NCBI GenBank assembly: GCA_965231015.1
Contig: OZ246408.1
Span: 396,488 to 460,487, forward strand
Direction: 5' to 3'
Source: an uncultured Gammaproteobacteria bacterium
GTDB lineage: Bacteria > Patescibacteriota > Patescibacteriia > UBA9934 > CAZDDW01
Length of the DNA stretch: 64,000 nucleotides
Shown here: positions 3,430-52,199 of the stretch, piece by piece
How the letters are laid out: each line of letters begins with the position of its first letter
Position numbering within the stretch: position 1 is the first letter of the stretch
Notes under the pieces: generated by a model
Databases searched by the model: none
What the model saw: only the letters and a program-made list of their open reading frames with translations
Told to the model about the DNA's origin: nothing
Position numbers and translations under genes: made by a program

Positions 3430-5004
3430 ATGAATATGGATAAGAAATTAGAGCATTTAGAGAAAGTATTACGCAACGCTCATGCTGATGCCTCGGCTCC
3501 GGAAGGCGAGGTTATTTCGGTTTCAGATACGGTATCTAAGGCCGCTTCGGTTTACGAAGCTATTCGAAACACTTTGGAGTATGACGAAGAGCATCGTTTA
3601 CGCAGAAACGCTATCCGACGAATTTTAAAGCGACGGCTAGGGGCTCAGGAAGACCTGGATTTAATTGCCCAGGAGCTTTTGCATGAATTGATTTGGGCTC
3701 GTTATTTCCCGAATAAAGCTATTCCCGAATCCATGATCGGGGAAGTGTCTGATGTACTAAGAAAGTATCGGCCACTATTCGGGTCACTCGCCAAAATGCA
3801 GGACGTTAATAAGGTTCACGAGTGGTTGCTCGACATGGTAGCCAGTGAAATCGGGTATTTGTTAGTACCACCAGTCGAGGAAGATGCCATGGCAAACTTT
3901 GCTTACCACACCCTGAAAGAGCGAATTAAATGGGACTCCAAGGCTCTGGAAGAAAAGGATCGGGACATGCAGCTGTATCTGGCGGTTCACCGGGCGCTGT
4001 TGCGTTCAAATCCCGCAGTTTTGCGCTACCGGATTTTTATTTTGTTTTATCCAAACTGGCATAATACCTCACCTGAGTTGATTAAAGAGATAGCCGGGAA
4101 TTTGGATCGGGTTTATAATTCGATCGAACAGACAGTCAAACACCCGGCTTCAGAATCTTTGTATCGATTGGTGCGTCGTTACACCTTCATGTTTAATGTT
4201 TTACGGGACGTGATTGTTAAAAAACCAAAGGAAGCGTCCCGGTTGTTGTCTGATCCTGAAGCACTAGACAAGGCCATGGCAAATGCGGCTAAAGATCGGT
4301 ACAAGAGCTTCCATATCAAGTTACGCCGTTCAGTGGTTCGGGCAGTGGTATTTTTGTTTATTACCAAAATGTTTTTGGCTCTCATTATTGAGCTTCCTTA
4401 CGATCTGTTTATTCTTCAGACCTCCAATTTCGTACCCCTCGCCACAAACGTCTTGTTTTTTCCGTTATTACTTGGTTTTCTCGGTATGACCGTAACCCTT
4501 CCCAAAAAGAAAAATACTGCTTTACTAAAAAAATATTTGCGGACAATTGTATTCCAAGAAGGGGAGATTTCTATTGTTTACCGCACCAAAAAAGCCTGGC
4601 GTCGCTCAACGATAGGTAAAATTTTTGATTATTTGTATTTGGCCATGTTCCTAGTGTCCTACGGAGTGATCGCTTATTTTTTACACATGATCCATTTCAA
4701 CGCCTTGTCCATTGCTATTTTCCTGTTCTTCCTGTCGTTGGTTTTATTTTTTGGTGTCAGATTGCGTATGTCGCGACGGGATTTGTTAGTGGTGGAGCGG
4801 GCCGGAGGAATCATTTCGAGTTTATTCGACTTCTTTTTCTTGCCAATTATTCGCGCCGGACGTTGGATGGCTTTGCGAGCACCGCGAATTAATGTTTTCC
4901 TCTTCTTTTTAGACTACATTGTTGAAGCACCGTTTAAGATGGCTATTCAGCTCGTTGAGGGCTGGCTTGCATTTATGCGGGAGAAAAAGGAGGAAATAGA
5001 GTAG
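3430..5004 (+). CDS. hypothetical membrane protein (soluble N-terminal domain, multi-TM C-terminal half)
   Basis: 524-aa ORF; hydrophobic segments in the C-terminal 250 aa. Confidence 0.5.
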   Translation: MNMDKKLEHLEKVLRNAHADASAPEGEVISVSDTVSKAASVYEAIRNTLEYDEEHRLRRNAIRRILKRRLGAQEDLDLIAQELLHELIWARYFPNKAIPESMIGEVSDVLRKYRPLFGSLAKMQDVNKVHEWLLDMVASEIGYLLVPPVEEDAMANFAYHTLKERIKWDSKALEEKDRDMQLYLAVHRALLRSNPAVLRYRIFILFYPNWHNTSPELIKEIAGNLDRVYNSIEQTVKHPASESLYRLVRRYTFMFNVLRDVIVKKPKEASRLLSDPEALDKAMANAAKDRYKSFHIKLRRSVVRAVVFLFITKMFLALIIELPYDLFILQTSNFVPLATNVLFFPLLLGFLGMTVTLPKKKNTALLKKYLRTIVFQEGEISIVYRTKKAWRRSTIGKIFDYLYLAMFLVSYGVIAYFLHMIHFNALSIAIFLFFLSLVLFFGVRLRMSRRDLLVVERAGGIISSLFDFFFLPIIRAGRWMALRAPRINVFLFFLDYIVEAPFKMAIQLVEGWLAFMREKKEEIE

Positions 5005-5175
5005 GGGGCACGGCTGACCTGGTTTGATCACCGTTCGGCCTGGTTGTCTTTAAGAGTAAAATATTTCTGGCCTCACTCGGCGTCGGCCAAACAAGACCGA
5101 ATTGATTGAGAGAAGTTCGATTTGTCAGTTTGTCCTCCGATCGTGCTCAAACCAGGTCAGCCTCGCCTGATAGAG
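5003..5175 (+). ncRNA. conserved structured leader element, copy A (candidate cis-regulatory RNA)
   Basis: Perfect 16-bp closing helix (5012-5027 GGCTGACCTGGTTTGA with 5147-5162 TCAAACCAGGTCAGCC). Internal blocks shared with copy B at 11174-11352 (see findings). Confidence 0.5.
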
Positions 5176-5181
5176 GAGAAT

Positions 5182-6186
5182 ATGGAAAAGAAAAAAAGAA
5201 AAATTACCCTGTTTCGTATTGTGCTTTTTGGCACGGTCTTAGCGGCCGCTCTTTTAGTGGTGGCCTATTTAGTAGTTGAACAAGAGTTAAAAAAAATAGA
5301 GCCACAAAAACTGGGAGTGACTTACAGTCTGGTCTTTGCTGATCAGCTCGAGATTGATTCACAGGCTGCTTTTCTAGCTCTGATGGATGAGGTTCAAGTG
5401 AAACGTTTTAGAATTCCGGTTTACTGGTCCATGGTTGAAGTGGACGAGGGTGTTTATGACTGGTCGCGGTTTGACCGGTTGCTCAATGAAGCGAATCAAC
5501 GGGAAGGAGTGGAAGTAACTTTAGTGATTGGGCGCAAAGTTCCGCGCTGGCCTGAGTGTTTTATTCCCGGCTGGGTGTCGCTTTTAAGCAACGAAAAACA
5601 GGACCAAGCCCTTCTCAGATACATGGAAGAAGCGGTTTTGCATTTTCAAGGTCACGGCTCAATTACTCGCTGGCAGGTGGAAAATGAACCTTTTTTGGCT
5701 TTTGGCGAGTGCCCGCATCCGAGCCTTAATTTGTTCAGGGAAGAGTTAGATCTGGTACGATCTTTAGATGATCGACCAATTCAGGTCACTACGAGCGGTG
5801 AACAAGAACCATGGATTGATACTGCCATGAACGCTGATATTGTTGGGGTCTCGTTGTACCGTTTGGTGTGGAGTGATTTCTTTGGTTTTGCTTTTTATCC
5901 GTTTTCTCCCGTGTATTATGAGATCAAAGCAGTGGTGACCAGCGCTTTTGCCGATCAGGTGATTATATCCGAACTGCAGGCCGAACCTTGGTTTACAGAA
6001 CCGATTGAAGAAATATCGATTGATGATCAGTATAAAATTTTCGACGTTCAGGCACTTGAGGGTAATTTGGACTTTGCCCGACGAACTCGCCTTTCGGAAG
6101 TGTATCTTTGGGGGGCTGAGTGGTGGTACTATATGAAAGAGAACGGAGATAATCGTCATTGGGAGGCAGTAAAAGAGATTTTTTAG
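5182..6186 (+). CDS. glycoside hydrolase, clan GH-A TIM-barrel (GH5/GH42-like), N-terminal membrane anchor
   Basis: WQVENEP catalytic-acid motif; SD AGAGGAG before the ATG at 5182. The ORF track starts at 5122. Confidence 0.55.
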   Translation: MEKKKRKITLFRIVLFGTVLAAALLVVAYLVVEQELKKIEPQKLGVTYSLVFADQLEIDSQAAFLALMDEVQVKRFRIPVYWSMVEVDEGVYDWSRFDRLLNEANQREGVEVTLVIGRKVPRWPECFIPGWVSLLSNEKQDQALLRYMEEAVLHFQGHGSITRWQVENEPFLAFGECPHPSLNLFREELDLVRSLDDRPIQVTTSGEQEPWIDTAMNADIVGVSLYRLVWSDFFGFAFYPFSPVYYEIKAVVTSAFADQVIISELQAEPWFTEPIEEISIDDQYKIFDVQALEGNLDFARRTRLSEVYLWGAEWWYYMKENGDNRHWEAVKEIF

Positions 6187-7809: not shown

Positions 7810-7864
7810 TAAATTTAGTCTTAAAATAGTCAAGTTTAAGGGTCGGAATTGTTATCCACATCAA

Positions 7865-7913
7865 ACACAATATGTTGTGGTATAATAGGTGTGTGAGACA
7901 CAAGATCTAGTGG
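7865..7913 (+). promoter_or_regulatory. two NrdR-box-like palindromes overlapping an extended -10 (TGGTATAAT) upstream of nrdJ
   Basis: aCACAATATGTTGTGg at 7865-7880 and aCACAAGATCTAGTGg at 7898-7913. Both resemble the 16-bp NrdR consensus acaCwAtATaTwGtgt. Centres are about 33 bp apart. Confidence 0.45.
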
Positions 7914-7985
7914 GTGAGGCCCACTTTTTGTTCTGTCAGATAATCACAAATAATCAAAGTTGAATCCATATTAATCGCCAAGTCT

Positions 7986-10900
7986 ATGGAACAAGCTAAA
8001 AAGGGCACAAAAGTCAATACAAAGGTCGCTGCCAACACTGCCGATGGTCCCGTCGGTGAAGTTTGGGCTTTTTTGACTTCACTGAAGTCTGTAGGTAAAC
8101 GCAACGGTGGGGAAGAATCTTTTGATGCGGAAAAACTCCACTGTTCTATATTTAAGAGTTTACACGAGGCTGGGATTAAGAACGAACAAAGAGCTTTAGA
8201 TATTACCAGTCAGGTTATTGAGAGGTTGAATCAGACCTATAATGGACACAAGGTGCCACAGACTATAGACATCCGTGAGGTTGTAAACGCTACGCTTGTG
8301 GACAATAACCTGGTTCACGTATCCAAGCTGTACATTGATCATCGTCAGCAGTTGAATGTGTCTTTGTCAGAAAAAGAACAGTTTGGTAATGGAATTGAGT
8401 TCAGTCGTTTCTTTACTGAAGATAGTAAACACCCATATGAGAAAATTGAATGGGAAAAACGAGATGCTCGCATTACTAATGAAAAAGGTGAGGTGGTATT
8501 TGAACAGACCGGCGTTGAGGTTCCCAAGACTTGGTCGCAAACCGCAACAAATATTGTGGTTTCCAAATATTTCCGAGGACAAATTGGTAAGGATGATCGT
8601 GAATACTCGGTTAAGCAGTTAATTGACCGCGTGGCAAAAACCATATCCGAATGGGGACGCCGCGGCGGTTATTTTCAATCAGAAAAGGATGCCGTGGTAT
8701 TTGAAGAAGAATTGACCCACATCTTGGTCAACCAAATGGCTGCTTTTAACTCCCCGGTCTGGTTTAATGTAGGGATCAACCCAAAGCCCCAGTGTTCAGC
8801 CTGTTTTATTAACTCGGTTTCTGATGACATGCGTTCAATCATGAATCTGGCCACCACTGAATCCATGATTTTTAAGGGTGGATCCGGTTCCGGGGTCAGT
8901 CTTTCCGGTTTACGATCCAGTCAAGAATATTTGGGTGGTTCAAACGGAAAGTCATCCGGTCCGGTTTCCTTTATGAAAGGACTTGATGCTTTTGCCGGAG
9001 TAATTAAGTCCGGTGGAAAAACCCGTCGGGCTGCAAAAATGGTTGTATTAAACGTGGATCATCCGGATATTGAGGAGTTTATTGAGTGTAAGGCCGAGGA
9101 AGAGAAAAAGGCCTGGGCGCTTATGGATTCCGGTTATGACGGTTCAATTGATGGCCCGGCTTACGCCAGTGTGTTTTTTCAAAATGCCAACAACTCGGTT
9201 CGGGTAACAGATGAGTTTATGGAGGCAGTGGAAAAGAAAGTAGATTGGGTAACCAAAGAGGTGACCACCGGGAATCCATCTGTGAAATATCCGGCCAAGG
9301 ATTTAATGGACAAAATTTGTGATGCTGCTTGGCAATGTGGAGATCCGGGAATGCAGTACGACACCACGGTTAATAAGTGGCACACTTGTAAAAATTCCGG
9401 ACGTATCAACGCGTCTAATCCGTGCAGTGAGTACATGTTTTTGGATGATTCAGCCTGCAATTTGTCTAGTTTGAATCTGATGAAATTCCGCAAAAAGGAT
9501 CCGGCTACCGGATTAATGGTGTTTGATGCCAAGGCGTTTAAAAAAGCGGCCGAGGTTATGATTACGGCCATGGAAATTGTGGTCGACCCATCAAGTTATC
9601 CAACTCCGGCCATTGAACGCAATTCTCATATTTTTCGACCGCTCGGAATTGGTTATGCCAACCTGGGAGCACTTCTGATGAGCATGGGCCTGCCGTATGA
9701 TTCGGATGAAGGACGCAATGTGGCCGGAGCCATCACGTCTCTTATGAGCGGTCACACATATTTACAATCTGCCCGAATTGCTAAGCGTAAGGGGCCGTTT
9801 GTTATGTATGAAAAAAACAAAGACCCAATGCTGGAAGTTTTACGGATGCACCGAGAAGCCACCAAAGATATGTCTCGCGAGGGTGTGCCTGAAGAATTAA
9901 TGCTTGAAGCACTCGCTGGCTGGGAAAAGGCAGTGGCTAAGGCTGAAGAACACGGCGTACGCAATGCTCAAATTAGCTTATTGGCACCAACCGGAACCAT
10001 TGGTTTTCTCATGGATTGTGATACCACGGGAATTGAGCCGGACATTGCTCTTGTAAAATATAAGTGGCTCGTGGGTGGTGGCATGGTGAAGATTGTGAAC
10101 AAAACTGTTCCTGAAGCACTGGATCGTATGGGGTATTCTAAGGAACAGATTGAAGATATTCAGGCCTATATTGAAAAGAAAGATACTATTGAAGGTGCAC
10201 CACACATTGAAGAAGAGCATTTGCCCGTGTTTGATTGTGCTTTTAAGGCACAAAATGGCAGCCGCTCGATTCACTACTTGGGGCATCTGCGCATGATGGG
10301 TGCGGTTCAGCCGTTTTTATCCGGAGCCATTTCAAAAACAGTTAATATGCCAAACGAGGCTACCCCGGATGATATTGCTGAAGTCTACCGCGAGGGTTGG
10401 AAGATTGGCTTGAAAGCTATTGCGATTTACCGTGATGGATCCAAGCGTCAGCAGGCTCTGACGACCAGTTTGGAAAAAGATAGTTCAAAAAAGGAAGTCA
10501 AAGAAGTGTACAAGCCGCGCCGTCGACGCTTGCCGGATGAACGCAAGGCTGTAACGCACAAATTCGCGGTGGGAAGTCATAAGGGCTATGTCACAGTCGG
10601 GCTCTATGATGATGGAAAACCGGGTGAAATTTTCATTACCATCAACAAGGAAGGTTCAGTCATTAGTGGTTTAATGGACTCTTTTGCAACCTCGGTTTCG
10701 ATTGGGTTGCAGTACGGAGTACCTTTGAATGTGCTGGTGAATAAGTTTGTGCACATGCGTTTTGAGCCGTCCGGATATACTAACAATCCAAATATCCGCA
10801 TCGCTAAATCAATCGTTGATTATATCTTCCGCTGGATGGCTATGAAGTTTTTGCCGCCAGACGAAGCCATTGCCGCCGGAGTGAATGTGAGTATTGAAGA

Positions 10901-11174
10901 CCAAGAAGCTTTGGCTGAAGTTGCAGTTAAAGAAGCGGTTGAAACCAAAGAGGTTGGCGATCAGGTTGAAGAGAAAGATGATGGGGAACAAGGAAAGCTG
11001 TTTGAAGCAAAAGAAAATAATGAAGAAAAGGCAGAAGTGGGAAACCATGAATTAGCCGCCACGTTTGAAAATAGTTCTGACGCACCGGTTTGTGATACTT
11101 GCGGGTCGGTTATGGTGCGCAACGGTGCTTGCTATAAGTGTCTCAATTGCGGAGCCAGTTCTGGCTGTAGCTAA
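7986..11174 (+). CDS. nrdJ: adenosylcobalamin-dependent (class II) ribonucleotide reductase
   Basis: N-terminal ATP-cone; NPCSEYMFLDDSACNLSSLNL active-site region; C-terminal CxxC...CxxC zinc ribbon; 1062 aa. Confidence 0.8.
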   Translation: MEQAKKGTKVNTKVAANTADGPVGEVWAFLTSLKSVGKRNGGEESFDAEKLHCSIFKSLHEAGIKNEQRALDITSQVIERLNQTYNGHKVPQTIDIREVVNATLVDNNLVHVSKLYIDHRQQLNVSLSEKEQFGNGIEFSRFFTEDSKHPYEKIEWEKRDARITNEKGEVVFEQTGVEVPKTWSQTATNIVVSKYFRGQIGKDDREYSVKQLIDRVAKTISEWGRRGGYFQSEKDAVVFEEELTHILVNQMAAFNSPVWFNVGINPKPQCSACFINSVSDDMRSIMNLATTESMIFKGGSGSGVSLSGLRSSQEYLGGSNGKSSGPVSFMKGLDAFAGVIKSGGKTRRAAKMVVLNVDHPDIEEFIECKAEEEKKAWALMDSGYDGSIDGPAYASVFFQNANNSVRVTDEFMEAVEKKVDWVTKEVTTGNPSVKYPAKDLMDKICDAAWQCGDPGMQYDTTVNKWHTCKNSGRINASNPCSEYMFLDDSACNLSSLNLMKFRKKDPATGLMVFDAKAFKKAAEVMITAMEIVVDPSSYPTPAIERNSHIFRPLGIGYANLGALLMSMGLPYDSDEGRNVAGAITSLMSGHTYLQSARIAKRKGPFVMYEKNKDPMLEVLRMHREATKDMSREGVPEELMLEALAGWEKAVAKAEEHGVRNAQISLLAPTGTIGFLMDCDTTGIEPDIALVKYKWLVGGGMVKIVNKTVPEALDRMGYSKEQIEDIQAYIEKKDTIEGAPHIEEEHLPVFDCAFKAQNGSRSIHYLGHLRMMGAVQPFLSGAISKTVNMPNEATPDDIAEVYREGWKIGLKAIAIYRDGSKRQQALTTSLEKDSSKKEVKEVYKPRRRRLPDERKAVTHKFAVGSHKGYVTVGLYDDGKPGEIFITINKEGSVISGLMDSFATSVSIGLQYGVPLNVLVNKFVHMRFEPSGYTNNPNIRIAKSIVDYIFRWMAMKFLPPDEAIAAGVNVSIEDQEALAEVAVKEAVETKEVGDQVEEKDDGEQGKLFEAKENNEEKAEVGNHELAATFENSSDAPVCDTCGSVMVRNGACYKCLNCGASSGCS

Positions 11175-11352
11175 CAGGGGGGGCTCGGAAATATAATATT
11201 GGCACCGTTCGGATCGGACGGTGCTTAATTTTATTGAAGGTGTCAGACCTCACTCATACGTCGACCAAACAAGACTGAATTGGTTAACCAACGTTCGATC
11301 TGGCGGTTTGGCCTCCGAACGTGCTGTGATATATTTCCTCGCTATAAGGGGG
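11174..11352 (+). ncRNA. conserved structured leader element, copy B
   Basis: Shares CACCGTTCGG, CTCACTC, CCAAACAAGACYGAATTG, GTTCGAT and CCTCCGANCGTGC blocks with copy A. Closing helix AAATATA (11189-11195) with TATATTT (11330-11336). Confidence 0.5.
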
Positions 11353-11373
11353 GTGGAGTGGTACAATGAATTT

Positions 11374-11952
11374 ATGAACTCGAATCAACAAATAACGGAT
11401 CTTCGAATCAAGGGGCGTGAGGGGTATGGTTTAATTCAAGTCTTTACCGGGGACGGCAAGGGTAAAACCACTGCCGCTCTTGGTGAAGTTTTGCGTTGTG
11501 TGGGCGCGGGCAAAAAATGTGGAGTAGTGTTTTTTGATAAGGGCGGCGAGCATTACTCGGAGCGTCGCGTTCTTGATCAGCTTGGGGTTGATTGGTGGAG
11601 TAGTGGTCGAGATCGAATTGATCCACAAACCGGTCGCTTTGATTTTTCTGTGACTGACCTAGATAAAACCGAAGCGATTGGTGCACTTAGCATTGCTTTG
11701 GAACTGTTTAAACAGGCCAGTCATGATCTGATTGTTTTAGACGAAATAAATGTGGCTATGGATAAGGGGATGATAGAAACCGAACAGGTTTTAGACTTAT
11801 TGAAAATCAAACCAGCCATGACCGAATTAGTTTTGACCGGTCGCGAAGCACCGGAGCCGATTCTAAAGGCCGCTCACCTGGTGACAGAAACTAAACTAAA
11901 AAAACACTACTTTTATAGTGGTGTTCCGGCGCGGGAAGGTCTGGATTATTAA
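11374..11952 (+). CDS. cobO: cob(I)yrinic acid a,c-diamide / corrinoid adenosyltransferase (CobO/BtuR family)
   Basis: GDGKGKTTAALG P-loop, VLDE motif. Start chosen at the first in-frame ATG after the leader element; the ORF track extends to 11221 across the element. Confidence 0.7.
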   Translation: MNSNQQITDLRIKGREGYGLIQVFTGDGKGKTTAALGEVLRCVGAGKKCGVVFFDKGGEHYSERRVLDQLGVDWWSSGRDRIDPQTGRFDFSVTDLDKTEAIGALSIALELFKQASHDLIVLDEINVAMDKGMIETEQVLDLLKIKPAMTELVLTGREAPEPILKAAHLVTETKLKKHYFYSGVPAREGLDY

Positions 11953-40752: not shown

Positions 40753-40947
40753 TTAGGCTCGGGCTACATTGATGGCTCGAGGACCCTTGTCAGAATCTTC
40801 AGTCTCAAAGGTGACAGCGTCGTCCTCTTTAAGATCGTCATATTCAACGTCCTGAAGAGATGAGCTGTGGAAGAAGATATCATCTCCACCTTCTTCAGGC
40901 ACGATGAAACCAAATCCATTCTTCAAAGTCTTGATTTTACCAGTCAT
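40753..40947 (-). CDS. cspA: cold-shock protein (CspA family)
   Basis: MTGKIKTLKNGFGFI...; 64 aa. The longer ORF to 41169 is a 5'-UTR artefact. Confidence 0.8.
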   Translation of the reverse strand: MTGKIKTLKNGFGFIVPEEGGDDIFFHSSSLQDVEYDDLKEDDAVTFETEDSDKGPRAINVARA

Positions 40948-41140
40948 AGTAAAAATATATGAGTTAATCTGCAAAACGTGGCTTAGGCTGCAGAAACTCG
41001 ACTTATTTCTACTTAACTTAAGGCAAACTTTTTGCACCGCAATTATAACATGAATAAGTTCGTATGTCAATGGGGTGGGTTTTACTAAAGATTCTAAACT
41101 AAAAGTAACACTTATTTGATAGTAGTAATAATAAAGTAAT

Positions 41141-42081
41141 AAAGGGGTCAAGTCTTGTAAAGGGGTCAAGTCTTGTTAACGACTTTTTTATTATACTTCC
41201 CTCTACTAATCCTTCCAATAACTGATGGGTCAAGTTTCACATATTTTGCAATTTCTGTGGCGGGATACCCACATCGAATACGTGCGAATTGAATCATTTT
41301 GTTTCTTTCTTCTTTTGTTGAAATACTATCAAACAACTCTTCGAGGCTTGGTCTACCCACAATCCTCTGTTCTCTTGGACAATCTTTAATCTGCCCCGAT
41401 CCCCTTGTCTGATTTTCCCGGATCCAATCAATGAATTGTGGACTACCAAGAAGAAATCCGTTCTTTACATCTTTATGAGGATCTCTTGAATTTATTCCGT
41501 CAATTACAAATTGTTCATACATCTTTTGGGCATCACCTTTCTTGTCTGCAAAACACCCCAGAATCGAATCAGAATATAGCCATTTTGGTGACTCAATATC
41601 TTTAACTGAAGATTGAAAACCGCTCCATTTCCAATGACCGGGGTGATTAACAAGGTTCGCCCTAACGGGATTTAATGATATGTATCGAGCCACTTCGAGA
41701 AGGTAGGTTTCTTTTTCTATCACAAATGATTTATACCGCCCTTGAAACAGGTGTCCCACGGTTTTGTGCTTTGCATTAAACCACTGTGTATAATTACCAT
41801 TTATGTCACGCATGGATTTAGACAGATTTGCGTCAGGTGTTTCCAGAAGCAAATGATAGTGGTTATCCATCAGACAATATGCGTGACAAATTATATTATG
41901 CATTTTTACTGCGTCACCAATCCAATCTAAAAACTTCAGACGGTCATCGTCATCATGGTAAATGTTTTGATAACCGTTACCGCGGGCGATTACGTGGTAA
42001 AGCGCGAAGGGATATTCTATTCTAAGCGGTCTTGCCATACAACATTATTATACCAGATAGTCGGTAGCAAGACCTGACCCC
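41141..42081 (-). mobile_element. IS200/IS605-family-like (RAYT-like) single-gene element bounded by 14-bp inverted repeats
   Basis: Left GGGGTCAAGTCTTG (tandem 18-bp copies at 41141-41158 and 41159-41176). Right CAAGACCTGACCCC at 42068-42081; its reverse complement GGGGTCAGGTCTTG matches at 13 of 14 positions. Confidence 0.5.
41166..42038 (-). CDS. HUH Y1 transposase (IS200-like / REP-associated tyrosine transposase family) with C-terminal DnaA-like HTH
   Basis: HYHLLLE HUH motif, catalytic RYI, C-terminal IRCGYPATEIAKYV HTH. Confidence 0.55.
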   Translation of the reverse strand: MARPLRIEYPFALYHVIARGNGYQNIYHDDDDRLKFLDWIGDAVKMHNIICHAYCLMDNHYHLLLETPDANLSKSMRDINGNYTQWFNAKHKTVGHLFQGRYKSFVIEKETYLLEVARYISLNPVRANLVNHPGHWKWSGFQSSVKDIESPKWLYSDSILGCFADKKGDAQKMYEQFVIDGINSRDPHKDVKNGFLLGSPQFIDWIRENQTRGSGQIKDCPREQRIVGRPSLEELFDSISTKEERNKMIQFARIRCGYPATEIAKYVKLDPSVIGRISRGKYNKKVVNKT

Positions 42082-52030: not shown

Positions 52031-52071
52031 TTGCATAAAAATAATTAGCACTCTATAATATGGAGTGCTAA
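52031..52071 (+). promoter_or_regulatory. sigma70 promoter (TTGCAT-17-TATAAT) with a perfect CIRCE operator TTAGCACTC-N9-GAGTGCTAA
   Basis: CIRCE at 52045-52071 overlapping the -10. Confidence 0.85.
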
Positions 52072-52199
52072 GTAAGAATTTTCAATTTTCCAATTTACTA
52101 ATTTTCAATGTTGGAGGCTGTTTGGTATTTTACAGTCAAATGAACCTTGGATTTTTGAAAATTCAATGAAAATTGGATATTGAAAACTGTAAATATTTT

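Follow-up and report, generated by a model that had tools for sequence, protein, structure and literature searches.

A stretch of 64,000 nucleotides (nt) of Patescibacteria DNA, hereafter the window, raises the question of why two operons carry what looks like the same structured sequence of about 170 nt, once before the gene of a glycoside hydrolase (GH)-like protein (copy A) and once before cobO (copy B). When the window was read from its letters alone (the sequence-only reading), this element was put forward as a candidate new cis-regulatory RNA, with covarying helices and the layout of a riboswitch-like or protein-binding leader. The covarying helices of a structured non-coding family are supported, both by the number of double-sided changes relative to shuffled controls and by substitutions between orthologues that preserve pairing. 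The other part of the proposal fared worse, as sites empty of the element, an antisense copy and unrelated genes all speak against a riboswitch-like leader of the downstream gene. Neither for the GH-like gene nor for cobO is the element a dedicated, ligand-sensing leader. On balance we lean towards a structured insertion element of restricted lineage, non-autonomous and mobile now or in the past, whose single-strand fold is selected and which is co-transcribed at operon junctions.

The window regions of both copies were read directly and then aligned to each other. As had been claimed, ordered blocks are shared by the two leaders: CACCGTTCGG, CCTCACTC, CGTCGRCCAAACAAGACYGAATTGRTT, GTTCGATYTG and GTTTGKCCTCCGAWCGTGC follow one another in identical order in A and B, separated by unrelated spacers, and the two longest blocks, CCAAACAAGACYGAATTGRTT and GTTTGKCCTCCGANCGTGC, occur twice each in the 64 kb, on the + strand only (chance 0.01 and 0.08, respectively). 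No third copy was found in the 64 kb of the window by nhmmer or by a covariance model with filters off. The proteins encoded beside the copies assign the window to Candidatus Uhrbacteria (Patescibacteria). Copy A lies between a 524-amino-acid (aa) open reading frame (ORF) without Pfam match and the gene of the membrane-anchored GH-like protein, and copy B between nrdJ, coding for a class II ribonucleotide reductase, and cobO. The parts of both copies are the following, SD standing for Shine-Dalgarno and MFE for minimum free energy.

4996-5004, + strand: left direct repeat ATAGAGTAG, lying at the hairpin foot and formed by the last codons and the stop of the 524-aa ORF upstream.
5005-5169, + strand: copy A, the whole element between the direct repeats (MFE -65.7 kcal/mol, z = -3.2).
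5006-5027, + strand: 5' arm of the closing stem, with P0 (GGGC, 5006-5009), a 2-nt internal loop and outer P1 (5012-5027).
5029-5036, + strand: conserved 5' block CAC(C)GTTC, which forms inner P1 (P1a) with 5139-5145.
5037-5072, + strand: H1, in which GGCC 5037-5040 pairs with GGCC 5069-5072 around an AT-rich variable interior.
5071-5078, + strand: conserved block CCTCACTC, modelled as mostly single-stranded, its first two bases overlapping the 3' strand of H1 (5069-5072).
5085-5135, + strand: P3-P4 arm, with P3 formed by GGCCAAAC (5085-5092) and GTTTGTCC (5128-5135), and P4 by AGACCGAAT (5094-5102) and GTTCGATTT (5115-5123).
5139-5168, + strand: 3' arm of the closing stem, with P1a (5139-5145), outer P1 (5147-5162) and P0 (5165-5168), including the conserved CCTCGCC.
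5170-5178, + strand: right direct repeat ATAGAGGAG, which is also the SD region of the GH-like gene (ATG 5182).
11176 (approximate start)-11353, + strand: copy B, the whole element, between the nrdJ stop (11172-11174) and the cobO ATG (11374).
11187-11195, + strand: 5' arm GGAAATATA of the copy B closing helix, pairing with TATATTTCC.
11194-11332, + strand: core of copy B, the covariance-model match (125.5 bits).
11330-11338, + strand: 3' arm TATATTTCC of the copy B closing helix, pairing with GGAAATATA.

Copy B is edged by a run of G at its start (11177-11183) and by AAGGGGGG at its end (11346-11353). Both copies had been described as ending 20-40 nt before a start codon; copy B ends about 21-31 nt before ATG 11374, and the closing stem of copy A stops about 14 nt before ATG 5182. 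The public call of CobO (11221-11952, + strand, 243 aa, GTG start at 11221) reads through copy B. As the CobO proteins of relatives have about 190 aa, ATG 11374 with its upstream G-rich SD sequence is the better fit, and the public cobO start is probably misannotated.

Syntenic contigs of relatives were fetched by means of the CobO and GH-like proteins, which biases the sampling to those two loci. Including these contigs (denoted by L and a number), five homologues were found in Candidatus Uhrbacteria: copies A and B of the window, L002:3848-3983, L012:9808-9949 and L142:5378-5519 (- strand). The closest relative is L002, with a CobO 86% identical and full synteny, where the orthologue of copy A spans 3829-4016. 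At the junction occupied by copy A, L012 holds a diverged homologue (9774-9989) with a closing-stem sequence of its own and an extra outer stem layer, and L142 has a gap of about 320 nt (5264-5583) in which a full antisense copy (5378-5522, - strand), opposite to both flanking genes, stands head-to-head with a sense, 5'-partial copy (5275-5360, + strand). The outer ends of the L142 pair resemble those of the L012 copy, and the pair may have arisen by nested insertion or by inversion between the arms. The length of the element is thus about 165-220 nt, and that of the composite L142 gap about 320 nt.

A covariance model built only from copy A, its L002 orthologue and copy B detected the L012 copy with 52.7 bits (E = 1e-10) and the antisense L142 copy with 24.5 bits (E = 7e-4), the next match reaching 14.6 bits. 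Therefore, the homology of these two distant copies is independent of their membership in the model. Within this sampling, the family is restricted to a few lineages of Candidatus Uhrbacteria (Patescibacteria). An intergenic element of about 150 nt located 3' of the GH-like gene in another relative (L135:3211-3362) has a closing stem of 12+8 bp and an MFE z of -6.1, and loosely resembles the family (CACTC ... AACAAG); its homology was unsupported by the covariance model (7.9 bits, E = 6.5).

The fold common to the copies consists of a closing stem (P0, a 2x2 internal loop, outer P1 and inner P1), H1, an unpaired CCUC(A/G)CUC and a GC-rich P3-P4 arm, where inner P1 is made of the conserved 5' block and the 3' block. 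The consensus of the core comprises the 5' block CG(Y)TCGG, a variable hairpin, the single-stranded CCTC(A/G)CTC and the GC-rich arm; the counterpart of block CCTCACTC in the L012 and L142 copies is CCTCGCTC. In copy A, the closing stem amounts to about 26 bp, and its helix 5012-5027/5147-5162 belongs to the strongest inverted repeat of the window (25 nt, 88% complementary). The 3' edges of the element are G-rich and SD-like in the L002 orthologue of copy A (AAGGAGGG), in copy B (AAGGGGGG) and in the L012 copy (AAGCGGG).

Two of the three compensatory features listed by the sequence-only reading were confirmed in this fold. The closing helices are of unrelated sequence, that of copy A being perfect (5012-5027 with 5147-5162) and that of copy B extending to 9 bp (GGAAATATA/TATATTTCC), and the 5' block pairs with the 3' block in both copies, through C5029-A5030 plus 5032-5036 with 5139-5145 in copy A (one bulge and one U.U mismatch) and through 10 bp with one bulge in copy B. 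The third feature, a hairpin with CTCACTC in its loop, is possible but was not established; it had been written in different registers in A and B. In a common register this hairpin is 83% paired, with shuffled controls equal to it, and it competes with H1 (GGCC 5037-5040/5069-5072), which is 96% paired.

The closing-stem arms of copy A, copy B and the L012 copy are unrelated in sequence yet paired, with both sides changed in 7-9 pairs of P1, and P3 reads GTCCAAAC/GTTTGGAC in L002, GGCCGCG/CGCGGCC in L012 and GCCGGCC/GGCCGGC in L142. When four copies were aligned with MAFFT, 90.3% of the cells were paired and both sides were changed in 11 of 36 pairs, compared to 4.3 ± 1.5 in shuffles, whereas slid controls paired 24-51% on the four copies (21-51% over the four- and five-copy tests). 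With five copies, 90% of the modelled pairs form and both sides are changed in 15 pairs, compared to 6.6 ± 1.7 in shuffles, the alignment having been fitted to the model, which favours structure. A longer H1 would be in competition with the inner part of P1; L012 shows compensation for each of the two. G.U pairs largely outnumber A.C pairs (15 vs 3, in helices chosen with G.U counted as a pair). This points to a single folding strand.

The comparison of the window with L002 revealed how strongly copy A is held. Four-fold degenerate sites of seven flanking genes differ at 55% (Jukes-Cantor distance about 1.0) and two ordinary spacers are 66% identical, whereas copy A and its orthologue are 88% identical (d = 0.13). 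Five pairs of the core have changed, none at the cost of pairing, which is kept or restored in each; two are full compensations (G-C to A-U and G-C to U-A). The remaining 12 differences fall in unpaired columns. This low divergence, together with changes that preserve pairing, indicates that copy A is constrained, and constrained on the sense-strand fold. Therefore, copy A is under purifying selection that preserves sense-strand base pairing.

The same comparison brought up a second conserved spacer, at 7810-7985 upstream of nrdJ, which is 87% identical to L002, against 66% for other spacers, and contains an NrdR-box-like palindrome (ACACAATATGTTGTG) beside a TATAAT. Its conservation is probably due to ordinary NrdR control of the reductase gene.

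Occupancy of the sites differs among relatives. In L002, L012 and L137-141, nrdJ and cobO abut or overlap, and no copy B was present in any syntenic relative examined. Therefore, copy B is an insertion in the lineage of the window, and its gain postdates the split from the nearest sampled relative. The junction of copy A, between the 522-aa gene of the relatives and the GH-like gene, is filled in four of the nine lineages sampled and empty in five, measuring 2-25 nt in L009, L010/L011, L137-141 and L143 and holding an unrelated AT-rich palindromic hairpin in L135; filled and empty sites are intermingled on a tree built from the upstream protein. The sites of gain or loss are very short spacers between genes that run in the same direction. 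As for the origin of copy B, it has the core blocks of copy A and none of its variable stem and hairpin sequence, which is 88% identical between copy A and its L002 orthologue. Copy B is therefore not a recent direct copy of A, which means that the lineage holds or held at least one more copy, and the likely source of copy B is a further, unsampled one.

The hairpin that fills the L135 junction, an AT-rich palindrome of 99 nt (L135:2116-2214), has an arm, GAATTTTCAATTTT, that recurs in the window. There, an AT-rich inverted repeat (52076-52093 with 52147-52164) with this arm lies beside a CIRCE operator, TTAGCACTC-N9-GAGTGCTAA, upstream of hrcA-grpE-dnaK (52046-52164). This AT-rich inverted repeat may represent a second family of hairpin insertions.

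At the copy A junction, the last 7-9 nt of the upstream gene, stop codon included, recur just before the downstream start codon. In the window, the repeats ATAGAGTAG and ATAGAGGAG match at 8 of 9 positions (p = 0.006 vs shuffles), and in L012 the sequence (A/G)TTGAATAA appears twice with 9 of 10 positions matching (p = 0.005). These repeats track lineage-specific synonymous variants of their left copy, which fits independent insertions and would mean that the same junction was struck repeatedly. Much of what the sequence-only reading had named as telling against its own proposal, a dispersed or MITE-like repeat (MITE, miniature inverted-repeat transposable element), is what was found: a lineage-specific insertion (copy B), variable site occupancy, an antisense copy and junction repeats. 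The gene context of the homologues points the same way, since no coherent set of genes is associated with the element and the same genes lack it in relatives.

Several points weigh against an insertion element and have to be set beside this evidence. The flanking repeat of L142, TTGAGT, matches at 6 of 7 positions (p = 0.18, weak), and none was found at copy B (p = 0.96). There are only five copies, and a single junction accounts for three of the four occupied sites, a skew that arises from sampling restricted to the surroundings of the GH-like and cobO genes; copy B is the single instance of dispersal, with no other location among the sampled loci. One old insertion followed by several precise losses fits the shared junction, and the outer arms shared by the L012 and L142 copies, equally well; such a history leaves the co-variation of left and right repeats unexplained, and would also suit a cis-acting RNA that has long been kept at one junction. 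Neither a terminal inverted repeat conserved between copies nor an autonomous partner was found, and the scans of sequence collections gave no further members with patterns that were either too strict or too loose. Finally, the conserved, branched and partly single-stranded core resembles a ligand- or protein-binding RNA, and a hairpin that is merely tolerated needs no such core.

That resemblance is the strength of the foremost rival, a cis-regulatory leader RNA in which a metabolite or a protein would be bound by the three-way core, and pairing of the CCUC-rich 3' strand with the downstream SD sequence would depend on formation of the closing stem. A conserved core with covarying stems and invariant unpaired blocks, the purifying selection on copy A, the sense orientation of four of the five full copies, directly 5' of a start codon, and three conserved CCUC motifs that could act as anti-SD, through only 4 bp, all suit such a leader, and with no Rfam family assigned to it the RNA could be a new class. 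We nevertheless hold it to be unlikely. With about 26 bp, the closing stem is far too stable for a switching P1. The downstream genes, for a GH-like membrane protein and for CobO, are unrelated and have no obvious common function, and both occur without the element in close relatives (the former in L009, L010, L137-141 and L143, the nrdJ-cobO pair in L002, L012 and L137-141). L142 carries a full antisense copy, junction duplications flank two sites, and the terminator- and promoter-like sites of copy B are not kept in A and occur at roughly chance frequency. An insertion element is preferred over a leader on these grounds, namely the unrelated downstream genes, the empty orthologous leaders, the antisense copy, the junction duplications, the excessive stability of the stem and the apparent lack of a conserved expression platform. 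If an insertion is granted, the fold could have been kept for an enzyme and not for an RNA function, as in a REPIN-like element that is moved, in the form of folded single-stranded DNA, by a RAYT-like Y1 (HUH) transposase whose gene lies at 41166-42038 (- strand) of the window, an account that we find more doubtful still. In its favour, this protein has a PF01797 match (6e-13), its best NCBIfam match is REP-associated tyrosine transposase and it has an HYH motif, and no DDE transposase, reverse transcriptase or integrase was found among the approximately 60 window ORFs scanned. Folding is specific to one strand, with G.T pairs tolerated; the copies occur in both orientations, and REPINs form hairpins that persist for long and are kept despite sequence change (PMC3337134). 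However, the protein scores 70.1 bits, below the cut-off of 80 of NF047646, and no copy of the element flanks its gene, either by the covariance model with filters off over 40.7-42.2 kb or by direct reading of the flanks. REPINs conserve their terminal REPs and vary the spacer, whereas here a non-palindromic interior is conserved and the outer stem varies, and the copy number looks low (2 in 64 kb). HUH Y1 transposition is not known to leave target duplications, yet flanking repeats of 8-9 nt are present at two sites. The idea to which we give least credit is a stand-alone trans-acting small RNA, or a processed stable RNA, coming and going as small genes do: a long stem would join its ends, a trait of many stable RNAs, the core is conserved without an ORF, and an antisense copy is tolerated in L142, but no conserved promoter or terminator lies beside the copies, which begin right after a stop codon and finish at the SD sequence. 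Two diverged copies within 64 kb together with junction duplications would be unusual for a housekeeping small RNA, and no Rfam match was obtained.

The RAYT-like ORF, of 290 aa with an IS200-like Y1 domain (PF01797, 6e-13), lies 30 kb from the element, is the only transposase-like gene among the approximately 60 window ORFs scanned, and overlaps by 4 nt a 138-aa cold-shock-domain ORF (40753-41169, - strand). As a mobiliser of the element it is only a lead. Two further sites were noticed in copy B only: a terminator-like hairpin at 11201-11225 (+ strand), of 11 bp followed by TAATTTTATT and built from the 5' block and copy-specific sequence, and a promoter-like TTGGCC-16-TATATT at 11308-11335 (+ strand), facing cobO. 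Such sites occur at roughly chance frequency in this region, where 16 were counted, compared to 10.0 ± 3.1 in shuffles.

Other identities were considered and discarded. The Rfam 15 search of the whole window at gathering thresholds returned only one tRNA, and when the threshold was relaxed to E<=10 on copies A and B and those of L012 and L142, matches were at chance level, such as a miRNA-precursor hairpin with 17.7 bits against a threshold of 70; in this respect, the absence of a known family anticipated by the sequence-only reading held up. T-box, B12 and other known riboswitches or ribozymes were rejected on this basis. A tRNA-like T-loop (GTTCGAT) was rejected since the motif is not kept in the L012 and L142 copies, and a promoter or terminator function since the sites are in copy B only and at roughly chance frequency. 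No conserved ORF or peptide was found in any frame on either strand, which disposes of a small ORF or type I toxin. The template and variable repeat of a diversity-generating retroelement were discarded as no reverse transcriptase was found and, on a reading of the alignment, the differences between A and B are not confined to adenines. In integron attC sites conservation lies in the core sites; here the conserved part is the interior, so attC was also rejected.

Searches for further members in sequence collections were carried out with patterns. Genome contigs gave 0 matches with CCAAACAAGACNGAATTGNTT and two matches, in Gordonia and Roseobacter, with CCAAACAAGAC..GTTCGAT..GTTTG, both judged to be due to chance. 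A degenerate three-block pattern, too loose for the purpose, yielded more than 120 matches in metagenome contigs, all of them chance matches from GC-rich genomes according to nhmmer, and three patterns run on viral contigs returned nothing or chance matches only. A literature search on structured RNAs and MITEs in the Candidate Phyla Radiation (CPR) found nothing relevant.

If the element is an insertion, as we favour, the way in which it could be tolerated can be outlined from its position and fold. The operon transcript probably reads through the element, and the closing hairpin would bring the upstream stop codon next to the downstream SD sequence and start codon at the foot of the stem, across an insert of about 170 nt, while the element would supply an SD-like motif of its own. 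With the stem foot and this SD sequence, an insertion into a translationally coupled junction might be tolerated with downstream expression unbroken and no polar damage; a hairpin that bridges the junction in this way would explain the selection on the stem. The conserved core may be needed for mobilisation as a folded single strand, or for a role at the RNA level such as protein binding or processing. A bolder version is a novel self-propagating structured nucleic acid in CPR bacteria whose fold works at the junctions, where the hairpin foot would set the upstream stop codon beside a duplicated junction, an SD-like motif of the element and the downstream start codon, and ribosomes could cross 170-220 nt by termination-reinitiation or by a hop-like transfer, or else a new ligand- or protein-binding RNA module riding on the insertion; this we regard as a long shot. 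Transfer of ribosomes across the insert would explain the lineage-wise co-variation of the left and right junction repeats. A ribosome hop as such was rejected because its predicted products are inconsistent, an in-frame fusion in the window and in L002 and an immediate stop in L012.

Genomes of Patescibacteria (CPR) are tiny and tightly packed, and to our knowledge almost nothing is known about their non-coding RNAs and small mobile elements. Here a structured element sits in translationally coupled operon junctions, under selection and yet gained or lost between close relatives. If the fold serves mobilisation, it would point to an undescribed route of mobilisation in CPR; if it serves the host transcript, the insertion would bring its own remedy for operon polarity. 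The case also shows that covarying helices in a conserved leader are insufficient for calling a riboswitch.

Compared to known systems, the element shares features with several and coincides with none of them. Translational bypass insertions, such as those of T4 gene 60 and the mitochondrial byp elements, resemble it in having a hairpin between matched short direct repeats, a stop codon at the hairpin foot and an SD-like motif 5' of the second repeat, although the element is intergenic and not within a coding sequence, is 3-4 times longer, and gives inconsistent hop products. MITE-type hairpin repeats (Correia/NEMIS, ERIC and RUP) are likewise small, non-coding, located between genes of operons and, as is probable for the element, co-transcribed as a long hairpin, with presence/absence polymorphism at orthologous sites and short direct target repeats at some of them. 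Nevertheless, the element is no textbook MITE or REPIN, as its copies have no terminal inverted repeat in common: the outer stem is variable and the branched interior conserved, the internal helices covary, one copy is under purifying selection, and no autonomous partner is known.

A REPIN is a variable spacer with one conserved REP on either side, the two being inverted relative to each other (PMC3337134). Like the REPIN-RAYT system, the element is an extragenic hairpin-former whose stems remain paired despite sequence change and which persists for long, and a RAYT-like Y1 gene is encoded in the same window; unlike it, conservation lies in the interior and variation at the ends, two sites have flanking direct repeats, the RAYT-like gene is unflanked and below the cut-off, and copies appear to be few (2 in the 64 kb read of a 1.0-Mb genome). 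REPINs number tens to hundreds per genome. From riboswitches, the element differs in lacking a coherent regulon and, it appears, a conserved expression platform, in being missing from orthologous leaders, in its one antisense copy and in its very stable stem, while it shares with them and with other structured leaders a multi-stem junction, a closing helix of free sequence, a position 5' of the SD sequence and start codon, and invariant unpaired nucleotides.

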